From assembly GCF_014054525.1 (NCBI RefSeq), contig NZ_CP059564.1, positions 48,357 through 72,356 on the forward strand: a stretch of DNA of 24,000 nucleotides, given 5' to 3'. Below the pieces are notes generated by a model. The model did no database searches. It saw nothing but the letters and a program-made list of their open reading frames with translations, and had not been told where the DNA came from. The position numbers were made by a program, and so were the translations under genes. This document shows, in pieces, positions 4,686 through 24,000 of the stretch. How positions within the stretch are numbered: position 1 is the stretch's first letter; the number at the start of each line of letters is the position of its first letter. This DNA comes from Alysiella filiformis. Lineage in GTDB: Bacteria; Pseudomonadota; Gammaproteobacteria; Burkholderiales; Neisseriaceae.

Positions 4686-5282
4686 TTACAACTGAATACC
4701 CGAAAACGACATAAAGCCCAAAGCCATCAAGCCGCCACTGATAAAGGTAATGCCCAAACCGCGCAAGCCTTTTGGCACATCGGCGTATTTCAATTTTTCG
4801 GTGATGCCTGCCAAAGCAACAATCGCCAACATCCAGCCCAAGCCCGCGCCCACGCCATACACGGCAGATTCCACAAAGCCATAATCGCGTTGCACCATAA
4901 ACGATACACCACCAAAAATCGCACAGTTTACCGTGATGAGCGGCAAGAAAATGCCCAAAGCGTTATAAAGTGCAGGGAAATATTTGTCCAAAATCATTTC
5001 CAAAATCTGCACAATCGCGGCAATCACACCAATGAATGTGATGAATTTCAAAAACGACAAATCCACACCTTGTGCCAACGCGCTGTCTTTCAACACCAGC
5101 GAATACACCAACTGGTTGGCTGGCACCGAAATTGCCAACACCACCGTTACCGCCACGCCCAAACCAAATGCGGTGGAAATTTTCTTGGACACCGCCAAAA
5201 AGGTACACATGCCCAAGAAAAACGACAATGCCATATTTTCAATAAACACGGCTTTAACAAAAATGCTCAATAATTGTTCCAT
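4686..5282 (-). CDS. nqrE: Na+-NQR subunit E
   Basis: 198 aa polytopic membrane protein: [22 protein letters not shown] ... [13 protein letters not shown] ... FMSFSGIQL, as in Vibrio NqrE. Confidence 0.95.
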
Positions 5283-5284
5283 GT

Positions 5285-5911
5285 TTATTTCTCCGCTTGT
5301 TCAGGTTTCCAAGTGCGTAATCCCCACACCAAAAAACCGATGATGAAAAACGCACTGGGCGCAAGCAAAAACAAACCATTGGCTTGATACCAACCGCCAT
5401 TTTGCACGGTTTGGAAAATTTCAATGCCAAACCATTTGCCCGAACCCACCAATTCACGAATGCTGGCAACAATCATCAACATCATGCCATAGCCCAAGCC
5501 TTGACCCAAGCCATCTACAAAACTTTCCACAGGTGGCTCTTTCATGGCAAAGGCTTCGGCACGACCCATGACAATGCAGTTTGTGATGATTAAGCCCACA
5601 AAAACAGACAGTTGCTTGGACAATTCATACGCAAAGGCTTGCAAAACTTGGTCCACCAACGTTACCAAAGACGCGATAATCGCCATTTGCACGATAATGC
5701 GTATGCTGTTGGGAATGTAGTTGCGAATCAATGAGATGAAAAAGCTGGAACAGCCCGTAACCAACGCCACCGAAATGCCCATAACCACCGCCGTTTTCAT
5801 TTGCGTGGTTACAGCCAGCGCGGAACACACGCCCAACACTTGCAAGGCAATGGGGTTGTTTTTAATAAAAGGCGAAAAGAATAATTCTTTCAATCGTTTG
5901 GAATCAGCCAT
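5285..5911 (-). CDS. nqrD: Na+-NQR subunit D
   Basis: 208 aa; [19 protein letters not shown] and [16 protein letters not shown] motifs. Its start overlaps the nqrC stop (TAATG). Confidence 0.95.
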
Positions 5912-6681
5912 TATTTTGCTCCTGCCTTAATTTTGTTCAAATAAGGGGCGTAACCGTTTTCGCTGAACCAGTATTTGAAGGAGTTGTTCACGCCTTTGCT
6001 GGTCATGGTTGCGCCTGATAAGCCATCTACGCCGTGTGCTTGGTCGGCTGATGCGCCTTTGCCCACTTTAATTGCCACTTCGCCATTGTCGGCATACAAT
6101 TTTTTGCCAACAAAATTCTTTTGCCACAATGGGTTGGCAATTTCCCCACCCAAACCTGCGGTTTCGCCTTGTTCGTAGTAGGTGATGCCGTTGATGGTGT
6201 TGCCATCGGCTTGCACCGCCACAAAACCATACATGATGGACCACAAGCCACTGCCGTGCATGGGCAACACGATTTGTTCCACTTTGCCGCTCTCGTCTTT
6301 AATCAAAAAGACTTCTGCATATTTGGCGCGACTTTGAATATTGGCAATGTCTTGGTCTTTGGGAATGACCACGTTTTGTTTGGGGTCTTTGGCGGCGGCG
6401 CGCGCGTCAAAATCTTTCACGTCCACATAATCGCCCGTTGCCAAATCCACCACGCGCGGCTCCACGCGTTGGGCGTAAATTTGCTTAATATCGGCATTCA
6501 GGCTGCCTGAAAGCAAACCTGCTGCCTGTAAAATGTTTTTCTGTTTGTCCAACAATTTCTTTTCGTTTTGTGTGGGTTTCAAGCCAACCGCCGCGCCTGC
6601 CACCACCACCGAACAAACCAAACTAATCGCCAACACAATGCCCATTGTGCCGCCGAAACTGTCTTTATCAAATTTAGCCAT
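5911..6681 (-). CDS. nqrC: Na+-NQR subunit C (FMN-binding)
   Basis: Start at MAKFDKDSF; this ATG overlaps the nqrB stop (cATGGCTAA). Flavinylation motif [12 protein letters not shown] and [13 protein letters not shown]. Confidence 0.93.
6497..6511. repeat. DUS palindrome TTCAGGCTGCCTGAA
   Basis: Exact 15-mer inside nqrC; encodes SGSLN. Confidence 0.85.
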
Positions 6682-7906
6682 GACGTGCCTTTCTGCGTTT
6701 GATGTTGGCGCGAACCACCAAATTGTCAAAAATCGGAGCAAACAAGTTGGCAAACAAAATCGCCAACATCATGCCTTCGGGATAGGCGGGATTGACCACG
6801 CGAATCAACACGCACATCACGCCAATCAATGCGCCATACCACCATTTGCCCACATTGGTAAAGGCGGCAGACACGGGGTCGGTTGCCATAAAAATCATGC
6901 CAATGGCAAAGCCGCCCAACACCAAATGCCAATACCAAGGCATGGCAAACATGGGGTTGGTTTGCGAATCAATCGCGTTAAACAGCAAAGAAGTTGCCAC
7001 CATGCCCAACATCACGCCAGCAATAATGCGCCAAGACGCAATGCGCGTGAATACGATGAACGCCCCACCAATCAACAACATCAAGGTGGACACTTCGCCC
7101 ACCGAACCAGGGATATTGCCGATGAATGCGTCCATCCAAGTAATGGGTGCGCCTGTGATGGTGTTTTTTAAGCCAGCCGCGCCTTCGCTTGCCCATTGCG
7201 ACAAGGCGGTTGCGCCTGAAAAGCCGTCCACAGCCGTCCAAACTTTATCGCCTGAAATTTGTGCGGGGTAAGCAAAAAACAAAAAGGCGCGTCCTGCCAA
7301 AGCGGGGTTCATGAAGTTTTTGCCTGTGCCGCCAAACACTTCTTTTGCCACCACCACGCCAAATGTGATGCCCAAAGCGGCTTGCCACAAAGGCAAAGTG
7401 GGCGGCACAATCAGCGCAAACAAAATGGACGTAACGAAAAAGCCTTCGTTGATTTCATGCTTGCGGACTGTGGCGAACAACACTTCCCAAAAACCGCCCA
7501 CAATGAACACGGTCAAATAAATTGGCACAAAGAAAATCGCACCCAACAGCATTTTGCTGAACCAGCCTGCGCTGGCGGTTAAATTCACGCCAATCGCGTT
7601 TGCCAAAGCAAAATGCCAATTATTGGCGATGTTGGCTTGCAACAAATCCAAATGGTTGGCTGCCTGAATGGATTGCGCCCCCACATTGTACATGCCATAA
7701 AACATGGCAGGAAACAATGCCAACCACACCAAAATCATCATGCGTTTGCTGTCCAAAGCATCGCGTACATGGCTGGCTTGGCGCGTTACCGTGCCTTGTG
7801 TGTAAAACACGGTGGCAACCGCCTCGTAAAGCGGATACCATTTTTCGTATTTTGCGCCTTTGTGAAACTGGGGTTCAATTTTTTCTAAAAAATGTTTCAA
7901 GCCCAT
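6674..7906 (-). CDS. nqrB: Na+-NQR subunit B
   Basis: 410 aa polytopic membrane protein; FMN attachment motif [11 protein letters not shown]; N-terminus [29 protein letters not shown] is typical of NqrB. Confidence 0.95.
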
Positions 7907-7908
7907 GT

Positions 7909-9255
7909 TTAACCTTCTTTCTCAATCGTATTCAATACGTTACGCAACAGCGTGCCGTATTCGTATTTTCCTGGGCAAACAAAGCTGCACAATGCCAAAT
8001 CTTCTTCGTCCAATTCCAAGCAACCCAAGGCTTGTGCGCTGTCGGTGTCGCCCACGATTAAGTCGCGCAACAATAATGTGGGCAACAAATCCAAAGGCAT
8101 CACGCGTTCGTAAGTGCCAATCGGCACCATGGCGCGTTCGCCACCGTTTACGGCTGTGGTGAAATTGAACAATTTGTTTTTCAAAAAATGCCCCAATGTG
8201 GTGCGCGTAATCGTGAATTTTTCCGCACTTGGCACCACCCAACCGAGCAATTCTTTGGCGCGACCTTCTTCAATCACGGAAATTTGATTGTGGTAACGCC
8301 CCAAAAAGTCGTGTACGCCTGCGGCAATCGCGCCATTCAAAACCGAACCTGAAATGATGCGGTTTTCGCCACTTTTCAGGCTGCCTGAAACCAAATCGGA
8401 CACTTTCGCGCCCCAAATGGTGCGGATTAAACGTGGCTGTTCCACCTGCGGCCCTGCCAGCGAAATGACGCGGCGGCAATCCAATTCGCCCGTTGTGAAC
8501 AAATGCCCAATCGCCAACACATCTTGATAGCCGATGTGCCACACGGTTTTTTGGGCAGACACGGGTTCAATAAAATGAATGTGCGTGCCAACCAAACCTG
8601 CGGGGTGTACGCCACCAAATTCATGCACTTGCACATTGGCTGCCTGAACGCTGGGTAAAGTTGCACCTGCTTGTTTGCAAACGTGGATTTTGTTTTCGGT
8701 TAAACGGCTGATGGCGGTTAAACCGTTGATGAAATCGTCTGCGCGTTCATTGATGATTGCCACAGGATTGGCGGCGAGTGGATTGGTGTCCATCGCGTTC
8801 ACAAAAATCGCTTTGGGCGTGCTGTTTGGCGCGGGGATTTTGCTGAATGGGCGTGTGCGGAAACTTGTCCACAAACCCGATTGCAACAACTGTTCGCGTA
8901 CTTTTTCCGCGCTCAATTCGGCAATTTGGCTGCCTGAAAATGCGGCAAACGTGATTTGCTCATCGCCAGCCACATCAATCACAACCGCTTGCAACACGCG
9001 CTTTTCGCCACGATGAATCGCGCTGATTTTGCCCGATACGGGTGCGGTAAACACCACGCCCGCATTTTTCTTGTCTTCAAACAGCACTTGACCTTTTTTG
9101 ACCGTGTCGCCCTCTTGGACTTTCATGGTCGGTTTCATGCCCATGTATTCTTCGCCCAACACGGCGACTTGGCGCGGCGGTGGGCTGTCGTGTATTGTGG
9201 CTTGGTCGGGTTTGCCAGCAATGGGCAAATCCAAGCCTTTTTTGATGTTAATCAT
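7909..9255 (-). CDS. nqrA: Na+-NQR subunit A
   Basis: Start at [16 protein letters not shown] (the Vibrio NqrA N-terminus is [14 protein letters not shown]). C-terminus is [22 protein letters not shown]...IEKEG. The 19-codon upstream extension in the ORF track is rejected. Confidence 0.95.
8375..8389. repeat. DUS palindrome TTCAGGCTGCCTGAA
   Basis: Exact 15-mer inside nqrA; encodes SGSLK. Confidence 0.85.
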
Positions 9256-9353
9256 GGTTGCGGTTCCGTGTAATTTTGAAACAAATCGCCCGATTTTAAC
9301 CCAAATGGACATGGCTTACCATATTTTTACGGTTCAGGTGGGATTTATGGCAT

Positions 9354-9368
9354 TTCAGGCAGCCTGAA
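9354..9368. repeat. DUS palindrome TTCAGGCAGCCTGAA, left edge of the AT-rich insert
   Basis: Exact 15-mer, same orientation as the copy at 11477-11491. Confidence 0.85.
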
Positions 9369-9533
9369 CGAATTTTTATGCCTACTTAATTATCAATACC
9401 AAAACACAAAATTTCCAAATGCAGTACAATATAATTCAATTAAAAACAACTAGATAAAAAACACCAATCACATTACATTAGCCATGCTTTCAAAGCAAAC
9501 ATCTCAACTTAAATTTTAAAAAGGAAAGTCATC

Positions 9534-10709
9534 ATGGCTAAACAATACCGTAAACCCACAAATGAAGTTACCATTATTTATGGTGGTCGCAGCCCTGCTG
9601 GACGTGATACGCTTAATCCAAAAGATGTATTACCAAACGGTATGACAGCAAAACAACATTGTGAAAAATTGATTGCTGAACGCGGCGGCAAAGGGCATTT
9701 CATTGAAAAAAATTCTGAATTGGAAGATGTATGTATGTTGCACAGTTGCAGCTATTTTGGCGGCTGCTATGAAGCTGCCGAATACAGCTACCATTACGCA
9801 CTTTGCACCGAAATTGAATTTACCGCCACACTCAATGGCAAAGCCACTACCGCCAAAGAACTGGCAGCCTTAAAAGGTGGCGAGCGTGTGATTATCACAG
9901 CCAATCAAGATGTCGCTTGGTCTGCCAACGACAATAAAAAATTGGAAAAAGTGGCAATTAACCCAACTACCTATTCATTTACCATGCCCAAAGTAGGCTC
10001 ATTTACCATTAAAGCAACAGGAAAATGCGACCCGAAAGCGAGTAAAAGTGTTACGGTTGCAGTAAAAACAACCATTACATCGCCAGCACCCAAACCACAA
10101 TTTCCCAAAGACAAATTCATTGATGAACTTTATAAAGCAATGGATGAATTTAGTATTAAAGAGAAAAATGACCGTGCTGCCTTTTTAGCAAATGTTGAAC
10201 ATGAAACTATGGGTTTTAAAAGTTTATCAGAAGGTCAAGGCTTAAAATACACATTCAAAAACTGGAAAACAATTAACAAAAATACAAAAAATTGGGCAGC
10301 ACAAAAAGGGATGAATGCAGAAAGTGAATTTAACAAATTATCAGAACAAGATAAAATCAATATTATGTATCGCAATATGATTGGTAATAACAAACCAAAT
10401 GATGGTTGGGAATTTCGTGGGCGCGGCGCAATTCAATTAACAGGTAGGGGAAATTATCAAGGATTTGCCAACTACGCCAAACGTCCTGATATCATGACTA
10501 ATCCCAATTTAATTGCGACAGATATTATATTAGCTGCTCGTGCATCTGCATGGTTTTGGAAAAAAGGCTCACAAGCCAGCACATTAGCTTTAAAAGGTGA
10601 TTTCAGAAAATCACGTTTAACAGTCAATCATGGACGAGGTATGGAAGAAACTTTAAACTTTATCAATCGATATCTTTCAGGTAAAGGTTCTATTCCACTT
10701 TATCGTTAA
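9534..10709 (+). CDS. Leaderless multidomain protein with C-terminal GH19/COG3179 lysozyme (chitinase-like) domain; candidate secreted peptidoglycan-hydrolase toxin
   Basis: 391 aa; RBS aaaggaaag lies 6 nt before the ATG. C-terminal motifs are AAFLANVEHETMGFKSLSEG, FRGRGAIQLTGRGNYQGF and ARASAWFWKK. No N-terminal hydrophobic leader. Cys-rich N-terminal ~90 aa, central beta-rich ~90 aa, PAPKPQFP linker. AT-rich codon usage unlike the flanks. Confidence 0.75.
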   Translation: MAKQYRKPTNEVTIIYGGRSPAGRDTLNPKDVLPNGMTAKQHCEKLIAERGGKGHFIEKNSELEDVCMLHSCSYFGGCYEAAEYSYHYALCTEIEFTATLNGKATTAKELAALKGGERVIITANQDVAWSANDNKKLEKVAINPTTYSFTMPKVGSFTIKATGKCDPKASKSVTVAVKTTITSPAPKPQFPKDKFIDELYKAMDEFSIKEKNDRAAFLANVEHETMGFKSLSEGQGLKYTFKNWKTINKNTKNWAAQKGMNAESEFNKLSEQDKINIMYRNMIGNNKPNDGWEFRGRGAIQLTGRGNYQGFANYAKRPDIMTNPNLIATDIILAARASAWFWKKGSQASTLALKGDFRKSRLTVNHGRGMEETLNFINRYLSGKGSIPLYR

Positions 10710-10723
10710 ATAATACCAGTCAA

Positions 10724-10762
10724 AATCCAAGCTGTATTGTTTTAAATCATACGGCTTGGATT
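10724..10762 (+). other. Intercistronic stem-loop between the hydrolase gene and its partner
   Basis: aatccaagc (10724-10732) pairs with gcttggatt (10754-10762): 9-bp perfect stem, 21-nt loop, no U tail. It ends 21 nt before the next ATG. Confidence 0.45.
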
Positions 10763-10783
10763 AAAAGATTTAAGGAAACATTT

Positions 10784-11188
10784 ATGAAAAAATATTTATC
10801 ACTTTTATTACTTGGCTTAACACCGTTTACCTTTGCCAAAGAAACCTTGGAATTTTTGTGCAACACCGACCACAATGGAAAAGTCAGCATCCACTCCACA
10901 CCCCAAAAGTCCCATTATATTTACCGATTTTATAAAAATGGTAAATTAAAACTAACGATTAAGCACAATTATCAGCAAATTTTTCAAAACAGTTTAAATG
11001 AGAACCATATATCAATTATGCGTTTTCAAAATAACAATTATCAGTATTCCATTTATAACGCAGATTTTCGTTATGCAGGTGCTGATAATCCCGTAGCTGG
11101 CATTGAAATTACAACCCTAAATGATAAAGAATTCGTATCAAGATTAGCATGTATTAAAATTCATAAAAATTTTTCAAATATTCAATAA
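10784..11188 (+). CDS. Small exported (periplasmic) protein; candidate cognate immunity protein
   Basis: 134 aa; RBS taaggaaa. Sec-type signal peptide MKKYLSLLLLGLTPFTFA|KE. Mature part is N/Y/H-rich with two Cys (FLCNTD, LACIKI). Lies 74 nt downstream of the hydrolase on the same strand and is the lowest-GC stretch hand-counted. Confidence 0.65.
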   Translation: MKKYLSLLLLGLTPFTFAKETLEFLCNTDHNGKVSIHSTPQKSHYIYRFYKNGKLKLTIKHNYQQIFQNSLNENHISIMRFQNNNYQYSIYNADFRYAGADNPVAGIEITTLNDKEFVSRLACIKIHKNFSNIQ

Positions 11189-11476
11189 TCACATCACTAT
11201 TGGTTTAAAGAATACATTATCCTTGGTTACACAATATCAAAACAATAAAGGACAAATTCCATTATTAAAATAATCTAAAATACAAAAAAACAGTCCGAAT
11301 ATTCTCTTGATGAATTTCATTGATAATACTCGGATACAATCATGATTTCAACATTTATCTATAAAGCAAGTCCAATCATGCAAAAACACCTATCTCTTAT
11401 TATTTTATGTTTTTTCTATGTATCACATACAGTGGTCATGCAAAAAATACAGATATGATAAAAATTCAAAATGATT

Positions 11477-11491
11477 TTCAGGCAGCCTGAA
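11477..11491. repeat. DUS palindrome TTCAGGCAGCCTGAA, right edge of the AT-rich insert
   Basis: Exact 15-mer; first of two direct copies 30 bp apart, downstream of the SBP gene stop. Confidence 0.85.
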
Positions 11492-11506
11492 AAGCCAAAA
11501 TGCGCT

Positions 11507-11521
11507 TTCAGGCAGCCTGAA
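11507..11521. repeat. DUS palindrome TTCAGGCAGCCTGAA
   Basis: Exact 15-mer; second direct copy, 21 nt beyond the SBP gene stop. Confidence 0.85.
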
Positions 11522-11541
11522 ACATTTGAAAAATCAAAATA

Positions 11542-17248: not shown

Positions 17249-17272
17249 ATTTTATCGTGCTGCCAACCTACC

Positions 17273-17296
17273 CCCTCCCCTGCTTGCGGGGGAGGG
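17273..17296. repeat. GC-rich hairpin repeat unit between convergent genes (probable bidirectional terminator or RNA stabiliser)
   Basis: ccctcccc (17273-17280) pairs with ggggaggg (17289-17296). The 25 nt cccctcccctgcttgcgggggaggg (17272-17296) are identical to 4510-4534. A degenerate DUS (acaggcaacctaaaa) follows. Confidence 0.65.
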
Positions 17297-17321
17297 AACA
17301 GTTTACAGGCAACCTAAAAAA

Positions 17322-18806
17322 TCATTCCTCATTCAAATCAAGCTGTTTCAATGCGTCAAATTTCGCTTTCATGGTTGGGTTTTTGCGTGTGAGTTTTTTC
17401 ACGGTCAAATCATCGGCTTTGCGGTTTGCCAGCTCCAAATTGCGCTCAGACGACAACAATTCCGCTTTGGTTTTTTCCAACTCTTTGATACTTTTATCAA
17501 TATGTTCAATGGCAGCCTGAAACTTGCGGCTTGCCAATTCATAATTGCGCGAAAAATTGGTTTTAAACTCGTCCAATTCATTTTCAAAATTGGTGATGTC
17601 AATGTTTTGCGCTTTCATTTTTTGCATTTCCTGCTTGTATTTCAAAGCCTTAAATGAAGTTGTACGCAAAATCGTAATCAAAGGAATGAAAAACTGCGGA
17701 CGAATCACATACATTTTCTCGTATTCGTGCGACACGTCCACAATACCGCTATTATACAAGTCGTTATCGTTTTCCAGCAGCGACACCAGCACCGCATATT
17801 CACAATTTTTTTCGCGGCGGTCTTTGTCCAACTCTTTGAAAAAATGTTCATTTTTCTTTTTGGTGGCGGTGGCATCGTTTTCATTTTTCATTTCAAACAT
17901 AATGGAAACGATTTCCGTGCCATTTTCGTCCAATTCACGGTAAATGTAATCGCCTTTGCTGCCTGAACGCGCGTCATTATCCTTATGAAACAAAGCATTG
18001 GGAAAAGCCGTTGCCCGAATTTGGTTGAACACAATTTCACAATGCTGCTCCAAACTTTCGCCCAGCATTTTGGTGGATTGTTTGGCTTTAAAATCTCGAT
18101 AAAATTCAATGGCTTCATCTTTTTGTTTGAGCTGCATTTCATATTGTTGCTGCAAATTTTGTTTTGCCAACTCGTTTTGGGTTTTCTGCAATTCAAGTTG
18201 TGATTTTAAGTGATTGATTTCTTGTTCTTTTGCTGATTTATTTTCCAGCAACAGGTTTTGCGTTTCCATTTTGTGCAAATTCAATTTATTTTCAGAAAAT
18301 TGCTTTATTTCACGCAATTCATTCTCTTTTTTCATCAATTCTTGTTCAAATTGTGCCGTCAAATTTTGTTGGAGCGCGGCAATTTGGCTGTCAAATTTTT
18401 CTTGCCAAGCGCGAAGTTCGGCATTTTTGGCGGCAATTTCTTGTTTTAATGCGGTTTCGGCTTGGTTCATTGCCAAGCGGCTTTCACTTTCGTGATTGGC
18501 AATTTGCGCTTGCAAATGAATGATTTGCTGCTCTTTTTCCGATAAGGCTGCCTGAAAATCGCGTTGGCTTTCGGCTTTCAACTGCAAAATGTGCTGTTCT
18601 TTTTCGTTTAAGGCTGCCTGAAAATGCTGTTGGTTTTGGGCGTGTTGTAATTGCAAATCGCTGTGGTATTTTTGTTCCAACTGTTTGATTTGTTTTTGCA
18701 ATTCCAATTCAAATTCGCGTGTGCGAACCTGATTTTGAATGTCGGCATAGTGGTTTTCGTCTATGGTAAAGGCGGTGTGGCAATGGGGGCATTTGATGTC
18801 GTGCAT
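17322..18806 (-). CDS. DUF2130-like protein: N-terminal Zn-ribbon, long coiled coil, C-terminal PD-(D/E)xK-like nuclease core
   Basis: Begins MHDIKCPHCHTAFTIDENHY, a C-x2-C ribbon typical of DUF2130 as I recall it. About 230 aa of Q/E/K-rich heptad-like sequence follow. The C-terminus has KGDYIY...SIMFEMKNE (D...ExK). The start could also be the GTG at 18839. Confidence 0.7.
   Translation of the reverse strand: MHDIKCPHCHTAFTIDENHYADIQNQVRTREFELELQKQIKQLEQKYHSDLQLQHAQNQQHFQAALNEKEQHILQLKAESQRDFQAALSEKEQQIIHLQAQIANHESESRLAMNQAETALKQEIAAKNAELRAWQEKFDSQIAALQQNLTAQFEQELMKKENELREIKQFSENKLNLHKMETQNLLLENKSAKEQEINHLKSQLELQKTQNELAKQNLQQQYEMQLKQKDEAIEFYRDFKAKQSTKMLGESLEQHCEIVFNQIRATAFPNALFHKDNDARSGSKGDYIYRELDENGTEIVSIMFEMKNENDATATKKKNEHFFKELDKDRREKNCEYAVLVSLLENDNDLYNSGIVDVSHEYEKMYVIRPQFFIPLITILRTTSFKALKYKQEMQKMKAQNIDITNFENELDEFKTNFSRNYELASRKFQAAIEHIDKSIKELEKTKAELLSSERNLELANRKADDLTVKKLTRKNPTMKAKFDALKQLDLNEE
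18545..18556 (+). repeat. DUS 12-mer AGGCTGCCTGAA
   Basis: Exact; encodes FQAA on the coding (minus) strand of the DUF2130-like gene. Confidence 0.85.
18611..18622 (+). repeat. DUS 12-mer AGGCTGCCTGAA
   Basis: Exact; 66 nt from the previous copy and in the same frame (FQAA). Confidence 0.85.
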
Positions 18807-18844
18807 GGTGTGTTTCTCGCAAAAATTCGTATTATTCACAAAAA

Positions 18845-18856
18845 AGGCTGCCTGAA
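18845..18856 (+). repeat. DUS 12-mer AGGCTGCCTGAA
   Basis: Exact; in the DUF2130-like / ispD divergent intergenic region. Confidence 0.85.
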
Positions 18857-18946
18857 AAAGCCATTTAACAAAAAAATATGATTTAAAAATCAGTCTATTT
18901 CAGTTAAAATAACGTTAAATTTTAAAAAAATCCATTTCCTAAAAAC

Positions 18947-19639
18947 ATGAACACCCGCCGCATTGCCCTGATTCCTGCCGCAGGCATTGGCAGCCGATTC
19001 GGTTCGGAATTGCCAAAACAATATGTTCAAATTGGCGAAAAAACCGTTTTGCAACATACCCTTGATGTGTTTGCCGCCAATGAGCGCATTGACCACATTG
19101 CCGTGGTCATTTCGCCCGATGACAGCTATTTTGATGTGCTGATTAACCTGCCACACAATGGCAGCGTACATCGCGTGGGTGGCAGCAGTCGCGCCCAAAG
19201 CGTGTTTAATGGCGTGAATGAATTGGTGGATTTGGGCATTGCCACCTTGTCCGACAGCATTTTGGTACACGATGCGGCACGGTGTTGCTTGCCCCAAACG
19301 GCACTCAATCGCCTGCTTGACCACACCGAACACAACTACAATGGCGGCATTTTGGCATTGCCTGTTGCCGATACGCTCAAACAGCAAAATGCCCACCAAC
19401 ACATTGCGCGTACCGTATCGCGCGTGGGCATGTGGCAAGCGCAAACGCCCCAATTATTTCAGGCAGCTTTGTTGCAACGCGCCTTGGCAAACGTGAATTT
19501 GAACCACATTACCGATGAAGCCAGCGCGGTGGAACAACTCGGCATATCGCCCATGCTGGTGGAAGGCGACAGCCGCAACATCAAACTCACACGCGCAGAC
19601 GATGCGGCTTTGGTGGCATTTTTATTAACGCAAATGTGA
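18947..19639 (+). CDS. ispD: 2-C-methyl-D-erythritol 4-phosphate cytidylyltransferase
   Basis: 230 aa; IALIPAAGIGSRFGSELPKQY, VLVHDAARCCL and KLTRADD motifs. Confidence 0.9.
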   Translation: MNTRRIALIPAAGIGSRFGSELPKQYVQIGEKTVLQHTLDVFAANERIDHIAVVISPDDSYFDVLINLPHNGSVHRVGGSSRAQSVFNGVNELVDLGIATLSDSILVHDAARCCLPQTALNRLLDHTEHNYNGGILALPVADTLKQQNAHQHIARTVSRVGMWQAQTPQLFQAALLQRALANVNLNHITDEASAVEQLGISPMLVEGDSRNIKLTRADDAALVAFLLTQM

Positions 19640-19660
19640 TTTCAGCCAGCCTGAAATCAC
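19636..19660 (+). repeat. 10-bp-stem hairpin containing a one-mismatch DUS, overlapping the ispD stop
   Basis: gtgatttcag (19636-19645), ccagc, ctgaaatcac (19651-19660). No U tail, so probably not a full terminator. Confidence 0.6.
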
Positions 19661-19678
19661 CGAAAGACAATTTTGATA

Positions 19679-20053
19679 ATGGACATCAATGAAATAGATT
19701 TGGGCATCGCGGTGGTCAGTGGCACCTTGGTGGGTTTTTTGTTGTTTTTTCTGATTATTTGGTTCATCATTCGCCGCTTGCTTGCCAAGCAAGAAAAACA
19801 ATTGGGCTACCCCCATGTGCAAGAAAGTTTTGACGATTTTAAGTTATTGGTTTTTCTGCAACAAGATATTTTTGCCTTGCGGATTTATCGGCGTTTGTAT
19901 CCCAAATCGCATTTATCCGAAGCCAAATACATGATGGACAAAGTGCGCGGCGAAGCCAAAGACAATCTGCAAGAAGCCGCCAATGAAGTGGCACAAAAAA
20001 TTCAGGCAGCCCGCCGCAAAATCAAACCCAAACACATACACAACAAACAATAA
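19679..20053 (+). CDS. Small single-pass membrane protein of unknown function between ispD and ispF
   Basis: 124 aa from the ATG at 19679. One clear TM helix ([26 protein letters not shown]), then a basic soluble tail. Host-like composition; weak RBS. Confidence 0.5.
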
Positions 20054-20069
20054 AATCAAAGAGATAAAA

Positions 20070-20549
20070 ATGAAAATTCGCGTAGGACAAGGTTACGATG
20101 TACACCAGTTGGTTGAAAATCGCCCCCTGATTTTGGGTGGGGTTCACATTGATTTTGAAAAAGGTTTGCTGGGGCATTCTGACGCAGACATTTTGCTGCA
20201 CGCCATTACCGATGCGCTTTTGGGCGCGGCTGCTTTGGGCGACATTGGCAAATTTTTCCCCGACACCGCCCCCGAACACAAAGATGCCAACAGCCGCGAA
20301 TTGCTGCGTGTGGCATATCAAGCGGTGCAACAGGCTGGCTGGCAAGTCATCAACGTGGACAGCACCATCATCGCGCAACAACCCAAATTGCGCCCCCACA
20401 TTGATGCCATGCGCCAAAACATTGCCGATGATTTGGGCTTGCCCCTTGATTCGGTAAACGTGAAAGCGAAAACCAATGAAAAATTGGGCTATTTGGGTCG
20501 CATGGAAGGCATGGAAGCCCAAGCCATTGTCTTATTAAGCGAAATTTGA
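20070..20549 (+). CDS. ispF: 2-C-methyl-D-erythritol 2,4-cyclodiphosphate synthase
   Basis: Start at [14 protein letters not shown] (AAGAG RBS). [18 protein letters not shown] and the [10 protein letters not shown] metal/substrate motifs. 159 aa. Confidence 0.95.
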
Positions 20550-20587
20550 TTTTTAGCTACGCTAAAACCCATATTGAAGGAAAAATC

Positions 20588-21256
20588 ATGTCCAAACAAG
20601 ATGAAATGAAACGCTTGGCAGCCGAAAAAGCGGTGGAATTTGTCCCTGAAAATGAATACATTGGCATTGGTACAGGCAGCACGGTCAATTTTTTCATTGA
20701 AGCATTGGGCAAAAGCGGCAAACAAATCAAAGGTGCCGTGTCCACATCACAAAAAAGTGCCGAACTGATGGCGCAATATGGCATTCCCGAAATCCACCCC
20801 AACGAAGCGATGAAATTGGCGGTGTACATTGACGGTGCCGATGAAATCAACCATTCGCTGCAAATGATTAAAGGTGGCGGTGGCGCACACCTGCCTGAAA
20901 AAATCGTGGCAAAATTATCGGAAAAATTCATTTGCATTGCCGATGAAAGCAAATATGTGTCGCGTTTGGGCAAATTTCCTTTGCCGCTTGAAGTGGTGGG
21001 CATGGCACGTTCTATGGTGTCGCGCCAAATTGTGAAAATGGGTGGGCAGCCTGAATTGCGTATTGGTTTCAAATCTTTGCATGGCAATGAAATTGTGGAC
21101 GTGCGCGGTTTGGATTTGTCGCAACCTTTGACCATGGAACGCCAATTAAATGAAATCACAGGCATTGTGGAAAACGGTTTATTTGCCGAACGCCCTGCCG
21201 ATTTGCTGATTTTGGCGCGTGAAAATGGTGTGGTTGAGTTGATTACGCCACATTAA
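20588..21256 (+). CDS. rpiA: Ribose-5-phosphate isomerase A
   Basis: Start at MSKQDEMKRLAAEKAVEFV (AAGGA RBS). GIGTGSTVNFFIEAL, YIDGADEI, KGGGGAHLPEKIVA motifs. 222 aa. Confidence 0.9.
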   Translation: MSKQDEMKRLAAEKAVEFVPENEYIGIGTGSTVNFFIEALGKSGKQIKGAVSTSQKSAELMAQYGIPEIHPNEAMKLAVYIDGADEINHSLQMIKGGGGAHLPEKIVAKLSEKFICIADESKYVSRLGKFPLPLEVVGMARSMVSRQIVKMGGQPELRIGFKSLHGNEIVDVRGLDLSQPLTMERQLNEITGIVENGLFAERPADLLILARENGVVELITPH

Positions 21257-21281
21257 ATGCCCCATTCATCACCAACCCAAG

Positions 21282-21313
21282 CTGCCTGAACCCTTTTCAG
21301 GCAGTTTTGTTTT
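21282..21313 (+). terminator. Rho-independent terminator of rpiA built from a DUS half-site inverted repeat
   Basis: ctgcctgaa (21282-21290), ccctt, ttcaggcag (21296-21304): 9-bp stem, then ttttgtttt (21305-21313). Confidence 0.8.
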
Positions 21314-21326
21314 AAGGAAAAACACC

Positions 21327-22118
21327 ATGTTCCAACCCAAAATCGCCTTTTTTGACATAGACCAAACCCTGTATTTGAAAAACGAAAACCGCGTTCCCGA
21401 CAGCGCACGGCTCGCCCTGCAAAAACTGAATCAACGCGGCATCATCACCGCCATTGCCACAGGTCGGACTTTGGCGGTGCTGCCTGAAAGCATACGCGCC
21501 CTCATCGCCGAATGCGGCATAGAAATGCTGATTTCCGTAAACGGGCAATACATTGAATTTAAAGGTAAAGAGCTGATTTCATTTGCCATGCCACGCGATT
21601 GGATAGAACACATCGCCACCGCCTTGCAATCACAAAATGTGGATTACGCCTTTGTTTGCCGCAACGGTATTTTCGTGTCGCGCAACAATGCCCACATTCA
21701 GGCAGCCGCGCAAGATTTGAATTTGCCCTATTTTGTGGACGCGCTGGCGTATCAAAAATACGATGTTTATCAAATGCTTGGATTTTATCCTGCGGCTTTG
21801 TCTGCCCAAATTGAAGCCCTGTTGCCCCCCAACGTGAAAACAATCCGTTGGCATGAATTTGGTGTGGACATTTTGGACAAAAACGGCTCCAAAGCGCGTG
21901 GCATTTTGGCGGCTTTGGACAAATTGTCATTGAAAATTCAAGATACTATGGCATTTGGCGATGGCTTGAACGATGTGGACATGATTCAAGCCGTGCATTT
22001 GGGCGTGGCAATGGGCAATGCCGAGCCTGAACTCAAAGCCATTGCCGATTACATTGCCCCGAATATTGATGATGATGGCATTTATCGTGCCTTGGTGGAT
22101 TTACAAATCATTGATTAA
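21327..22118 (+). CDS. Cof-type HAD-IIB family hydrolase (sugar-phosphatase-like)
   Basis: 263 aa. HAD motif I FFDIDQTLY, motif II IATGR, motif IV FGDGLNDVDM; cap domain length typical of Cof/YbiV-type. Confidence 0.85.
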   Translation: MFQPKIAFFDIDQTLYLKNENRVPDSARLALQKLNQRGIITAIATGRTLAVLPESIRALIAECGIEMLISVNGQYIEFKGKELISFAMPRDWIEHIATALQSQNVDYAFVCRNGIFVSRNNAHIQAAAQDLNLPYFVDALAYQKYDVYQMLGFYPAALSAQIEALLPPNVKTIRWHEFGVDILDKNGSKARGILAALDKLSLKIQDTMAFGDGLNDVDMIQAVHLGVAMGNAEPELKAIADYIAPNIDDDGIYRALVDLQIID

Positions 22119-22125
22119 AAATAAT

Positions 22126-22764
22126 TTAATTGCTGGTAATGCGTTTTGCCCACGCAAACAATTCATCTAAATCATCATCGCCACCATGCCCCTGCCCCCA
22201 AGGTAAACTGAAATCCACATCTTTGTTTTCATTTTGCAATTTGAGCGCAAGCAAAGCAGGAATCGCCAAAGACGTATCGCGGTCGTTCACGCCATGACGA
22301 ATGCGGTAATATTTTGTTTTGGATTGAAAATTCATCGCGTTCATCATTTTCACAATGTGGGGGTCGGCTTTCAGGCTGCCTGAAACCGTGCTGTGTGTCG
22401 CGCCAAATTCGGTAAAATGCTTTTTATCCACATTGGCATCGCCAAACAAATTGTTCTCGCCTGTGGATAAATCCATGCCATCAAAGGCTGGGTGGTTTTT
22501 TGTCTGCCCACCGCTTTGGCGTAGGCATCAAAATCCACTTTGTCCACCGTGCCATTCACGTCCATTTTGCGATTGGTTTTGATAAGGGTCAGCCAATTTG
22601 CATTTTTTACTTCATCTATTTGATTTTTTGAATATTTTCCAAATTCATTATGCAAAACATTTTGTGCCGACAAAAGCAATATGCGCATGGGCATGTTCAT
22701 TGCCACTTGCATTGCAGGCAGCCAAAGAAACCACCGTTGCACAAGCCAAAAGCATTTTATTCAT
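22126..22764 (-). pseudogene. Truncated, twice-frameshifted tannase-like alpha/beta-hydrolase lipoprotein gene
   Basis: Three frames are needed. (i) ATG 22764 with AAGGA RBS gives the lipoprotein leader MNKMLLACATVVSLAAC and stops after 34 codons. (ii) A frame with ...NEFGKYSKNQIDEV...DFDAYAKAVG. (iii) A frame with NHPAFDGMDLSTGENNLFG...YRIRHGVNDRDTSLAIPALLALKL...FSLPWGQGHGGDDDLDELFAW, which resembles the C-terminal Asp/His region of bacterial tannases as I recall it. No GxSxG nucleophile region is present. Confidence 0.6.
22370..22384. repeat. DUS palindrome TTCAGGCTGCCTGAA
   Basis: Exact 15-mer inside the pseudogene. Confidence 0.85.
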
Positions 22765-23007
22765 CAAATTTTCCTTTCAAATCAATACAAACCCAATCAA
22801 ATAAGAAATTTTATCACAATCATTCTTAAATAAGGCAAAATCAACATTTCCCAAATCATTAAATTGACTTAGAACCTGTGTTCGTCAAATTGATGACTTG
22901 ATTTGATTGACAATTCTTGCGAATACAAAGCAAACCATTAAGATTATGAACGCAGATTCTTAATATTCGTTAAAATCACGATTTCATTTTTTGATGAGAT
23001 AAAACCC

Positions 23008-24000
23008 ATGCCCACCCTTTCCTACCCCACGCCAAATGCAAAAGAACGCAAAATAATCAATGACCTATTTCAATCATCACATGGCGATGTGTTTGCCTAT
23101 TTGGGGCAACACAAAATAGAAGGCACAGGCGAAGTGATACGCGCCCTGCTGCCACAGGCACAGGCGGTGAGCGTGTTGTCGCGCAATAGCCAAAGCATTG
23201 TTTGTAAAATGGAAAAAATCGATGAGCGCGGTTTGTGGGCGTGCAGGCTGCCTGAAAGCCCAACCGACAGCAATCCCTATTTATTGCAAATTATCCAAAA
23301 TAATCAAACCATTATTCAAGAAGACCCCTACCGTTTTGGCAGCTTTTTGGGCGACACCGACCATTGGCTGTTGGCGCAGGGCAAACATTTGCGCCCCTAC
23401 GAAAAATTGGGCGCACATTTGCGTGAAATCAATGGGATACAAGGCGCGTATTTTGCCGTTTGGTCGCCCAATGCCCAGCGCGTTTCCGTGATTGGCGAAT
23501 TCAACGATTGGGACGGGCGCGTTCATGTGATGCGCCGCCACCACGACACGGGCGTGTGGGAGATTTTCATTCCGCATGTGCCATTCAATGCCCTCTACAA
23601 ATTTGAAATTCGGGACAAAAATGGCAATATCCGAGTCAAATCAGACCCTTATGCTTTTGCCACCGAATTGCGCCCCACCACCGCGTCTGTGTTGCGCGGG
23701 CTGCCTGAAAAAATGCCCGTACCCCAATTTCGCCAAAAAAACAATGCCATAGATGCCCCCATTTGCATTTACGAAGTGCATTTGGGTTCGTGGCGCAGAA
23801 AAGCGGACAATGCGTGGCTCACTTACACCGAATTGGCAGAGCAACTGATTGATTATGTAAAAGAAATGGGGTTTACCCACATTGAATTGTTGCCGATTTC
23901 AGAATACCCGTTTGACGGTTCGTGGGGCTATCAGGCAACGGGTTTGTATGCGCCAACCAGCCGTTTTGGTTCACCGCAAGAATTGCAATTTTTGGTGCAA
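23008..24000 (+). CDS. glgB: 1,4-alpha-glucan branching enzyme, 5' partial (runs off the window)
   Basis: Not in the ORF track because it is open-ended. My translation from the ATG at 23008 is open for 331 codons: [111 protein letters not shown]. Confidence 0.93.
23245..23256 (+). repeat. DUS 12-mer AGGCTGCCTGAA
   Basis: Exact; inside glgB (encodes RLPE). Confidence 0.85.

Follow-up and report, generated by a model that had tools for sequence, protein, structure and literature searches.

What are two plus-strand genes doing among minus-strand neighbours in the chromosome of Alysiella filiformis, and by which route have they come there? The question is raised by the AT-rich stretch 9369-11476 of a 24-kb segment (contig NZ_CP059564.1, positions 48,357 to 72,356; the whole of its 24,000 nucleotides is called here the window), where the open reading frames (ORFs) ORF1 and ORF2 are set between nqrA and a binding-protein gene. 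The earlier note, made from the sequence by eye, had seen in this stretch a recently acquired insert of 2.1 kb, free of DNA uptake sequences (DUSs) inside and bracketed by them at the edges, with a cargo resembling a toxin and its immunity protein, and no phage, secretion or mobility gene nearby. Both genes are confirmed on the plus strand (9534-10709 and 10784-11188), and the nature of the cargo is strongly supported by the GH19 domain of ORF1, the linkage of ORF2, the variable C-termini of the homologues and the arrays of orphan immunity genes found behind them. The locus probably serves interbacterial competition, ORF1 being the toxin and ORF2 the cognate immunity protein, and represents an as yet undescribed polymorphic family of oral and animal Neisseriaceae. 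ORF1 is 100% identical to an annotated A. filiformis protein, and the locus is identical in five independent assemblies.

The C-terminal part of ORF1 matches PF00182 (GH19) with 38.2 bits, the cut-off being 25.5. By phmmer, residues 197-367 align with the endolysin of the Salmonella phage SPN1S (4ok7) at 2.7e-22, and the best Foldseek matches are all GH19 endolysins, with E values from 1.8e-8 (4ok7) to 1.4e-7. A PHROG endolysin match was obtained at 1e-34, and the GH19 domain is the only portion of ORF1 to match phage families. In the AlphaFold2 model of ORF1, built on the family alignment with a pLDDT (predicted local distance difference test) of 90, the domain is all-helical and adopts a GH19 lysozyme-like fold. 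Residues E224 (in HET) and E233 (in SEG), which we take from general knowledge of GH19 enzymes to be the catalytic dyad, align with the glutamates of the HES...QEN motif of 4ok7, and are invariant in 16 homologues. As judged from profile, alignment and predicted fold, the C-terminus of ORF1 is a muramidase of the GH19 phage-endolysin type, with both catalytic glutamates intact. Phage endolysins of this type, such as those of SPN1S and of the P. aeruginosa phage KTN6 (gp46, 8p8e), share with it the catalytic fold and the glutamate dyad; unlike ORF1, they reside in lysis cassettes, and have neither the N-terminal module described below nor a dedicated exported inhibitor. The same GH19 endolysin-type domain is fused, in three proteins of other bacteria (P0033, P0034 and P0037), to an N-terminal WXG100 domain (PF06013), and is thus apparently used also as a toxin module in polymorphic toxins of type VII style.

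The first 179 residues of ORF1 tell a different story. They are common to homologues which are 43-98% identical over this region and have unrelated C-termini. A profile search of 1.84 billion representative proteins with the N-terminal 179 residues retrieved 27 clusters at E <= 1e-10. At least six C-terminal types have been distinguished, five of which are related to peptidoglycan hydrolases; they include GH19, SleB/Hydrolase_2, two tail-lysozyme/SLT-like domains, a transglycosylase, a Tae4 amidase (found in protein P0049, PF14113 at 2.7e-11), and at least one unmatched domain. The C-terminal domain of the P0031 type found no match in PDB, Pfam or PHROG. Identity to ORF1 is mosaic, the N-terminal part reaching 90% in P0002 and 60% in P0003, and the C-terminal part 70% and 77%, respectively. 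A conserved N-terminus, variable C-termini, a downstream immunity gene which varies along with them, and orphan immunity genes are all found in the family, and by the features compared the locus qualifies as a polymorphic toxin/immunity system.

The small genes located downstream of the toxin genes of the family nearly all encode a signal peptide, and fall into three families. The toxins are cell-wall hydrolases, and the immunity proteins would therefore be exported rather than cytoplasmic. Family I includes ORF2, and is tiny, being made of 5 clusters. Every GH19-type toxin has one of its members as the next gene, as seen in four lineages (A. filiformis, Neisseriaceae bacterium B1, the group of loci L091-94 and L105, and locus L106), and no member directly follows a toxin of another type; an orphan copy is found at locus L096, where the toxin in front is not of the GH19 type. 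Family II passes the Pfam threshold for PF07007 (LprI lysozyme inhibitor), and follows toxins of the tail-lysozyme-like, P0013 and SleB types. LprI-domain proteins have been proposed to confer immunity to lysozyme-like effectors (PMC9796082). Family III follows toxins of the transglycosylase type. At most loci, one to three additional orphan immunity genes of other families are found behind the cognate gene; such arrays, to which all three families contribute, occur in L089, L090, L091-94, L095, L096, L098, L103 and L106, while the window keeps a relic of 41 bp only. This is the pattern expected of toxins directed against relatives, with defences collected against the toxins of neighbours. ORF2 carries a signal peptide at about residues 1-18 (MKKYLSLLLLGLTPFTFA, followed by KE) and two cysteines, C26 and C123, and we infer that it is the cognate periplasmic inhibitor of the GH19 muramidase. 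At locus L107 (55-1186) a member of the SleB type is split into 255 and 123 residues, being probably a frameshift pseudogene, and a 168-residue exported immunity-like gene is intact behind it, which suggests that immunity is retained after loss of the toxin.

The features of the locus are listed below, with coordinates in the window.

9353-9369, no strand assigned: left DUS, TTTCAGGCAGCCTGAAC; left edge of the module common with W. bovis, in which homology starts at 9360
9369-9533, plus strand: conserved AT-rich promoter and 5' untranslated region (G+C 0.27), 83% identical in an alignment of five loci, including the ribosome-binding site AAGGAAAG
9485-9497: palindrome TGCTTTCAAAGCA, in the 5' untranslated region of the toxin gene, about 40 nt before the start codon
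9534-10709, plus strand: ORF1, 391 residues, leaderless, with head domain, immunoglobulin (Ig)-like domain, linker and predicted GH19 muramidase
9534-9809, plus strand: head domain, residues 1-92
9810-10067, plus strand: Ig-like (Big-type) beta-sandwich, residues 93-178
10071-10091, plus strand: linker, residues 180-186, pLDDT below 50; left recombination breakpoint
10101-10706, plus strand: predicted endolysin-type GH19 muramidase, residues 190-391, with E224 and E233
10724-10762, plus strand: imperfect hairpin between ORF1 and ORF2, with 19-nt arms 84% complementary
10784-11188, plus strand: ORF2, 134 residues, predicted periplasmic immunity protein of family I
10071-11453, plus strand: variable cassette (toxin C-terminal domain, immunity gene and AT-rich tail), G+C 0.314
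11189-11453, no strand assigned: non-coding AT-rich tail of the cassette, 265 bp, G+C 0.27
11454-11494, plus strand: 41-bp relic made of the last six codons of a family-III immunity gene (YDKNSK, then stop) and a DUS; right junction
11476-11522, no strand assigned: two direct DUS copies at the 3' end of the convergent binding-protein gene

The N-terminal module is made of the head and the Ig-like domain, and was modelled alone with a pLDDT of 91. The head is predicted to fold into a beta-sheet with one helix. It begins with a conserved MAKKYR sequence, residues H42, C43 and C67 are invariant, and C72 and C78 vary together. Residues 1-179 belong to no Pfam or NCBIfam family, and the fold of the head found no significant Foldseek partner in PDB or BFVD. 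The Ig-like domain is matched by Foldseek to Ig-like domains exclusively, and is duplicated in some members of the family, as it is in surface-binding proteins. The second half of the profile also matches Ig-like repeats of giant surface proteins, whereas the head is confined to this family. The cysteines follow a strict rule. Among 28 members of the family, the C43/C67 pair is invariant, C91 of the head and C165 of the Ig-like domain occur together in 20 and are both missing in 8, and C72 and C78 occur together in 7 and are both missing in 21. Such perfect co-occurrence of three pairs suggests that they form disulfides, and points to a module which is disulfide-bonded and works outside the cytoplasm. 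No description of the head plus Ig-like combination was found in Pfam, NCBIfam, PHROGs, PDB or the literature searched.

A few candidate identities for this module were considered. In the model, the conserved segment running from MAKKYR to VTIIYGG is made of beta-strands that pack against the head (pLDDT about 87); VTIIYGG has the look of a TonB box, yet matches the consensus poorly, and AlphaFold2 puts it in a well-packed strand. Weak Foldseek matches to the tail-tube proteins gpV of lambda and pb6 of T5 (E about 2e-3, root-mean-square deviation above 15 Å, TM score about 0.3) do not make the module an Hcp or tail-tube protein, and have been read as driven by the Ig domain, both proteins combining tube and Ig domains. 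A phage or plasmid origin was dismissed, since the module found no tblastn match in 50,697 phage genomes or 72,556 plasmids, and none in IMG/VR.

How the two genes came to sit next to nqrA is best told by alleles of the same site. Locus L096 is colinear with 5001-10070 of the window, from the nqr operon across the intergenic region to codon 179 of ORF1, at 82% identity. The divergence of the ORF1 N-terminal part (81.4% identity) equals that of nqrA (81.6%), which implies that the locus is old at the nqrA site. Similarity stops at 10070 and resumes at the DUS (11474); in between, the L096 allele has a different C-terminal domain, followed by four genes for exported proteins. Locus L095 is 97% identical to 9305-10067, continues with another cassette, and ends in the DUS region by the binding-protein gene. 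It overlaps locus L111 by 88 identical bases, the two have a diagnostic SNP (single-nucleotide polymorphism) in common, and the nqrA of L111 is 90% identical to that of the window. Nucleotides 1-137 of the L111 contig are 99% identical to 9256-9392, the intergenic region on the nqrA side up to just beyond the left DUS, though its nqr genes are only about 90% identical; the contig stops 24 nt past the DUS, as if the assembly had broken at the variable locus.

Homology with L096, L095 and the W. bovis loci L089 and L090 ends in all instances at 10067-10074, and the left breakpoint at nucleotide 10070 corresponds to codon 179, where the Ig domain ends and the flexible linker starts. On the right side, 11454-11494 is 100% identical to L089 12257-12297 and L090 8700-8740, and 93% identical to L095 2396-2438; in these three loci the 41-bp element terminates an intact family-III immunity gene of 174-188 residues. 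No nucleotide homology was detected between 10071-11453 and the same-site alleles of L096 and L095, nor any protein or DNA similarity between the tail 11189-11453 and the downstream genes of other loci. The tail was also considered as a decayed gene, and discarded as such, as it has no blastx or blastn similarity except for the terminal 41 bp. Since homology is lost at 10070 and is back at about 11454, the exchanged unit is the cassette of about 10071-11453, and not the whole 2.1 kb. By these alignments, the GH19 domain and ORF2 have been exchanged, while promoter and N-terminal module (9369-10070, G+C 0.39) are resident. The recent insert proposed in the earlier note hence shrinks to the cassette, the promoter and 179 codons being resident at the nqrA site in two relatives, L096 and L095/L111.

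On a longer timescale the locus behaves as accessory and mobile DNA. In Neisseriaceae bacterium B1, nqrA is directly preceded by gltS, and the module, missing there, is found between a gene for a gyrB-type topoisomerase (with DNA_gyraseB Pfam domains) and one for a copper ATPase. B1 is the more distant relative; the closer ones, L096 and L095/L111, carry the 5' module at the nqrA site. In W. bovis the module starts exactly at the left DUS (about 9360), resides at another chromosomal site, and is found in tandem copies; it is 93% identical to that of the window, vs 77.5% and 87% for two housekeeping genes. All homologous modules have a G+C content of 32-37%, in hosts ranging from 42 to 55%. Of the features by which genomic islets are known, deviant composition and different location, or absence, in a relative are present, and mobility genes and att-like repeats are not. 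New cassettes have probably entered through natural transformation, the incoming DNA recombining by homology at the conserved 5' module on one side and at the DUS-bearing 3' junction on the other.

Two other loci are worth mentioning with regard to location. In W. bovis CP092357 (L090, 5757-11619) two toxin cassettes with different C-terminal types are arranged in tandem, each after a HIT-family gene, while W. bovis CP092360 (L089) has a single cassette only. The difference looks as though a cassette had been duplicated, or inserted between HIT genes that were themselves duplicated; a Fic gene adjoins. At locus L101 (2-3556) a member of the P0031 type lies directly downstream of rpoB and is followed by a gene of 151 residues, as another insertion into a core housekeeping neighbourhood.

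The composition of the stretch is deviant, as the earlier note had gathered from hand counts. The G+C content of 9369-11476 is 33.6%, against 46.6% in the remainder of the window, and is the lowest of any 2.1-kb segment in the 24 kb; tetranucleotide deviation is also maximal here. G+C at third codon positions is 0.29 in ORF1 and 0.28 in ORF2, and ranges from 0.52 to 0.60 in nqrA, nqrB, the binding-protein gene and the permease gene. The DUS argument fared less well. Three copies of TTTCAGGCAGCCTGAA lie in the same orientation at 9353-9369, 11476-11492 and 11506-11522, thus at both edges, and no exact or one-mismatch DUS occurs within 9369-11476. However, with 21 DUS sites spread over the 24 kb, spacings of 1.8-2.0 kb are frequent, and one gap reaches 3.5 kb (18856-22370). 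With DUSs placed at random, the probability that the largest gap is at least 2108 nt is 0.999. Gaps of 2.1 kb are expected by chance, and the lack of DUSs is therefore no evidence of recent acquisition; DUS depletion as a sign of foreign origin was rejected. Similarly, nearly all intergenic spacers of the window hold a DUS, so that bracketing is not specific to this stretch, and the view of the flanking DUSs as att-like repeats was set aside. They are the only flanking repeats, and no integrase, transposase, tRNA or long flanking repeat was found at the locus. The cassette boundaries do coincide with DUS-containing junctions, and a DUS dialect of the AG-king/AG-sim type is common to all DUS-bearing hosts of the module. 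The 15-nt DUS core, TTCAGGCAGCCTGAA (e.g. 9354-9368), is palindromic save for the central base, and each site is accordingly an AG-kingDUS on one strand and an AG-simDUS on the other; the AG-kingDUS:AG-simDUS ratio varies by host, being 15:21 in the window, 34:13 in W. bovis and 36:3 in L091.

The palindrome TGCTTTCAAAGCA is perfect apart from its central base, and occurs once in the window. Its arms are invariant in Alysiella, Wielerella, L095 and L096 despite the divergence of the surrounding sequences, L096 differing at the centre; the counterparts are located at L089 9945-9964, L090 6388-6407 and 9945-9964, L095 174-193 and L096 5327-5346. Other small palindromes are found at the equivalent place in the distant loci L086, L091, L103 and L104. 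The palindrome may act as a hairpin in the mRNA, or as an operator. No convincing Fur or SOS box was seen by eye in the promoter. As to the surroundings of the locus, the longest nqrA ORF (7909-9312, 467 residues) begins 19 codons upstream of the start annotated in the database (448 residues, start at 9255), and the additional codons overlap the conserved intergenic region. A broad region of low G+C content (17251-19000, 0.38-0.41) spans a minus-strand DUF2130 gene of 494 residues; among the 2-kb stretches of the window it ranks second in AT-richness, and possibly corresponds to another foreign gene. At 22126-22742, on the minus strand, ORFs of 116 and 123 residues overlap in different frames and resemble one frameshifted or decayed gene; a second strong dip in G+C content (0.35, AT-rich 22501-23250) adjoins them.

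What the locus does may be pictured as follows. ORF1 has no leader peptide and no lysis gene is found with it, and it is proposed that the protein is released by autolysis. The N-terminal module would be the delivery part, most likely a receptor-binding and translocation module, by which the toxin would reach the periplasm of related competitors; there the GH19 domain would degrade peptidoglycan, and competitors devoid of ORF2 would be lysed. ORF2, exported by the Sec pathway, would bind and block the muramidase in the periplasm of the producer. The layout recalls the pesticin/Pim pair of Yersinia pestis, in which a leaderless muramidase bacteriocin is flanked by the gene for a periplasmic immunity protein and no lysis gene is present (PMC3390615). 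For this reason a diffusible, receptor-mediated bacteriocin of the pesticin/colicin kind is tentatively favoured over a cargo of a secretion system of type VI (T6SS), with a chance that we would put at somewhat less than even. The order of head plus Ig-like module, linker, GH19 domain and ORF2 is compatible with a bacteriocin.

Several observations weigh against this picture. No export or import signal was identified in ORF1, and its N-terminus has no clear TonB-box consensus and no Tol box; moreover, it is predicted to be structured, unlike the disordered region that carries the TonB or Tol box in colicins and pesticin. Engineered disulfides block the import of pesticin (PMC3390615), so that a delivery domain rich in disulfides would need either to remain outside the cell or to undergo reduction. 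Co-variation of cysteines could also reflect the binding of a metal instead of disulfides. ORF2 matches no recognisable family, and its putative role as inhibitor is drawn from gene linkage. Finally, one member of the family has a Tae4 domain, and pairs of GH19-like and LprI type are known from T6SSs.

Comparison with known systems helps to place the family. ORF1 and pesticin are both leaderless toxins of about 360-390 residues, made of a non-catalytic N-terminal part of about 170 residues and an exchangeable C-terminal domain of phage-lysozyme descent, and both have next to them the gene for an immunity protein of the periplasm, tied to the catalytic domain (putatively so in the case of ORF2). 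In contrast, the N-terminal part of pesticin has no sequence or fold similarity to that of ORF1, its catalytic domain is T4-lysozyme-like rather than GH19, its gene is plasmid-borne and not chromosomal, and a disordered N-terminus bearing a recognisable TonB box was not seen in ORF1, its N-terminal module being apparently disulfide-bonded. Bacteriocins of the colicin M (ColM) family likewise target the cell wall, shuffle their modules and are countered in the periplasm; in that family, however, the catalytic domain is conserved and the delivery part varies, whereas the reverse holds for ORF1 and its homologues (PMC5821083). Judging from these comparisons, the putative delivery domain of ORF1 is not homologous to that of either pesticin or the ColM family. 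The MafB/MafI proteins of Neisseria and the CdiA-CT/CdiI proteins of contact-dependent inhibition (CDI) resemble the family in having a conserved N-terminus and a C-terminal toxin that varies along with the cognate immunity gene, in the presence of alternative or orphan cassettes downstream, in the location within AT-rich islands, and in the recombinational exchange of cassettes in naturally competent, DUS-bearing hosts (PMC4287609). The toxic domains of the ORF1 family, however, are cell-wall hydrolases and not nucleases or deaminases; MafB starts with a signal peptide and DUF1020 and is partnered by MafA, CdiA needs CdiB, and none of these is found at the ORF1 locus, which rules out a Maf or a CDI system.

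The most serious alternative is that ORF1 is a cargo effector of a T6SS, or of another contact-dependent machinery, onto whose VgrG, PAAR or Hcp components the head plus Ig-like module would be loaded, ORF2 being again a periplasmic immunity protein. Effectors such as Tae, Tge and TseP are peptidoglycan hydrolases acting in the periplasm, their immunity proteins (Tai, Tgi or LprI-type) carry signal peptides, are encoded directly downstream and accumulate in orphan arrays, and LprI-type orphan immunity genes have been found in a T6SS island of Pantoea (PMC9796082). Tae4, GH19-like and LprI domains are all represented in the ORF1 family, the GH19 domain resembles the lysozyme domain of TseP (8xcl, 8.6e-5 by Foldseek), and a missing leader peptide fits one-step secretion. 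Nevertheless, about 12 genomic contexts, scanned over distances of up to 10 kb, revealed no vgrG, hcp, paar, adaptor or tss gene, and no phage, secretion or mobility gene, which extends well beyond the window what the earlier note had remarked. The first 179 residues contain none of the markers PAAR, MIX, FIX, WHIX, Rhs or DUF4150 as defined in Pfam, no fusion to Hcp or VgrG and no known loading motif. A head plus Ig-like module rich in cysteine pairs is not known from T6SS effectors, and three co-varying pairs, along with the duplication of Ig-like domains, would be unexpected of a domain at work in the reducing cytoplasm. A literature search retrieved nothing on a T6SS in Alysiella or Wielerella, the scan for T6SS genes having covered the contexts mentioned. 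A T6SS cargo is rather unlikely, perhaps one chance in four or five in our estimation.

Two further explanations are far less probable. ORF1 might be the decayed endolysin of a prophage or tailocin, with an N-terminal cell-wall-binding domain, and ORF2 an unrelated moron or spanin-like exported protein, neither of them taking part in competition. The closeness of the GH19 domain to phage endolysins, the Ig-like domains that adorn many phage structural proteins, and the AT-richness of the region would be accounted for. Yet, no flanking phage gene, be it a holin, a spanin or other, was found in any context, and the N-terminal module is missing from the phage collections mentioned above. The ORF1 gene is moreover undamaged and conserved, the C-terminal domain changes along with the cognate exported protein, and orphan immunity arrays are no feature of phage lysis; the hypothesis is very hard to sustain. 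Just as improbable is a housekeeping role in which ORF1 would remodel the cell wall under the control of ORF2, for instance in shaping the septum or the filament of the multicellular Alysiella. The locus is indeed found unchanged in every A. filiformis sample recovered, and its chromosomal neighbours are housekeeping genes, but a leaderless enzyme could not reach the wall of its own cell, close relatives differ in the catalytic type that they carry at this very locus, all hosts have a composition to which it is foreign, the distribution is patchy (27 clusters among 1.84 billion proteins), and the locus is missing from the nqrA site of bacterium B1.

Toxins paired with immunity proteins are familiar biology; what is new is the family, whose distribution is very narrow and whose putative delivery module is uncharacterised. 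If the reading of a competition toxin is true, ORF1 and its homologues would add a new family to the few protein toxins of Gram-negative bacteria known to degrade the cell wall from the periplasm. The alleles of the nqrA site show cleanly how, in naturally transformable bacteria, a cassette has been replaced at the linker between two domains. One may further speculate, though this is unlikely to hold in full, that head and Ig-like domain make up a delivery domain of a new kind, relying on neither T6SS, CDI or Maf nor TonB-box import, which would set apart an undescribed class of bacteriocins, chromosomally encoded peptidoglycan hydrolases of DUS-bearing Neisseriaceae, and that these toxins lyse close relatives of the same DUS dialect, whose released DNA the producer takes up, the same process moving the DUS-bounded cassettes between strains; this would be a Gram-negative analogue of pneumococcal fratricide. 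Should delivery turn out to be ordinary loading as T6SS cargo, the outcome would be a family of effectors and a loading domain that are both new, useful and unsurprising. At least six interchangeable catalytic domains with matching exported inhibitors would constitute a toolkit for analysing the passage of large folded enzymes through the outer membrane, and one that could serve the engineering of lysin-type antibacterials against Neisseriaceae, including relatives of pathogens. Hydrolases that can be swapped, each with its inhibitor, make the question of delivery accessible to experiment.

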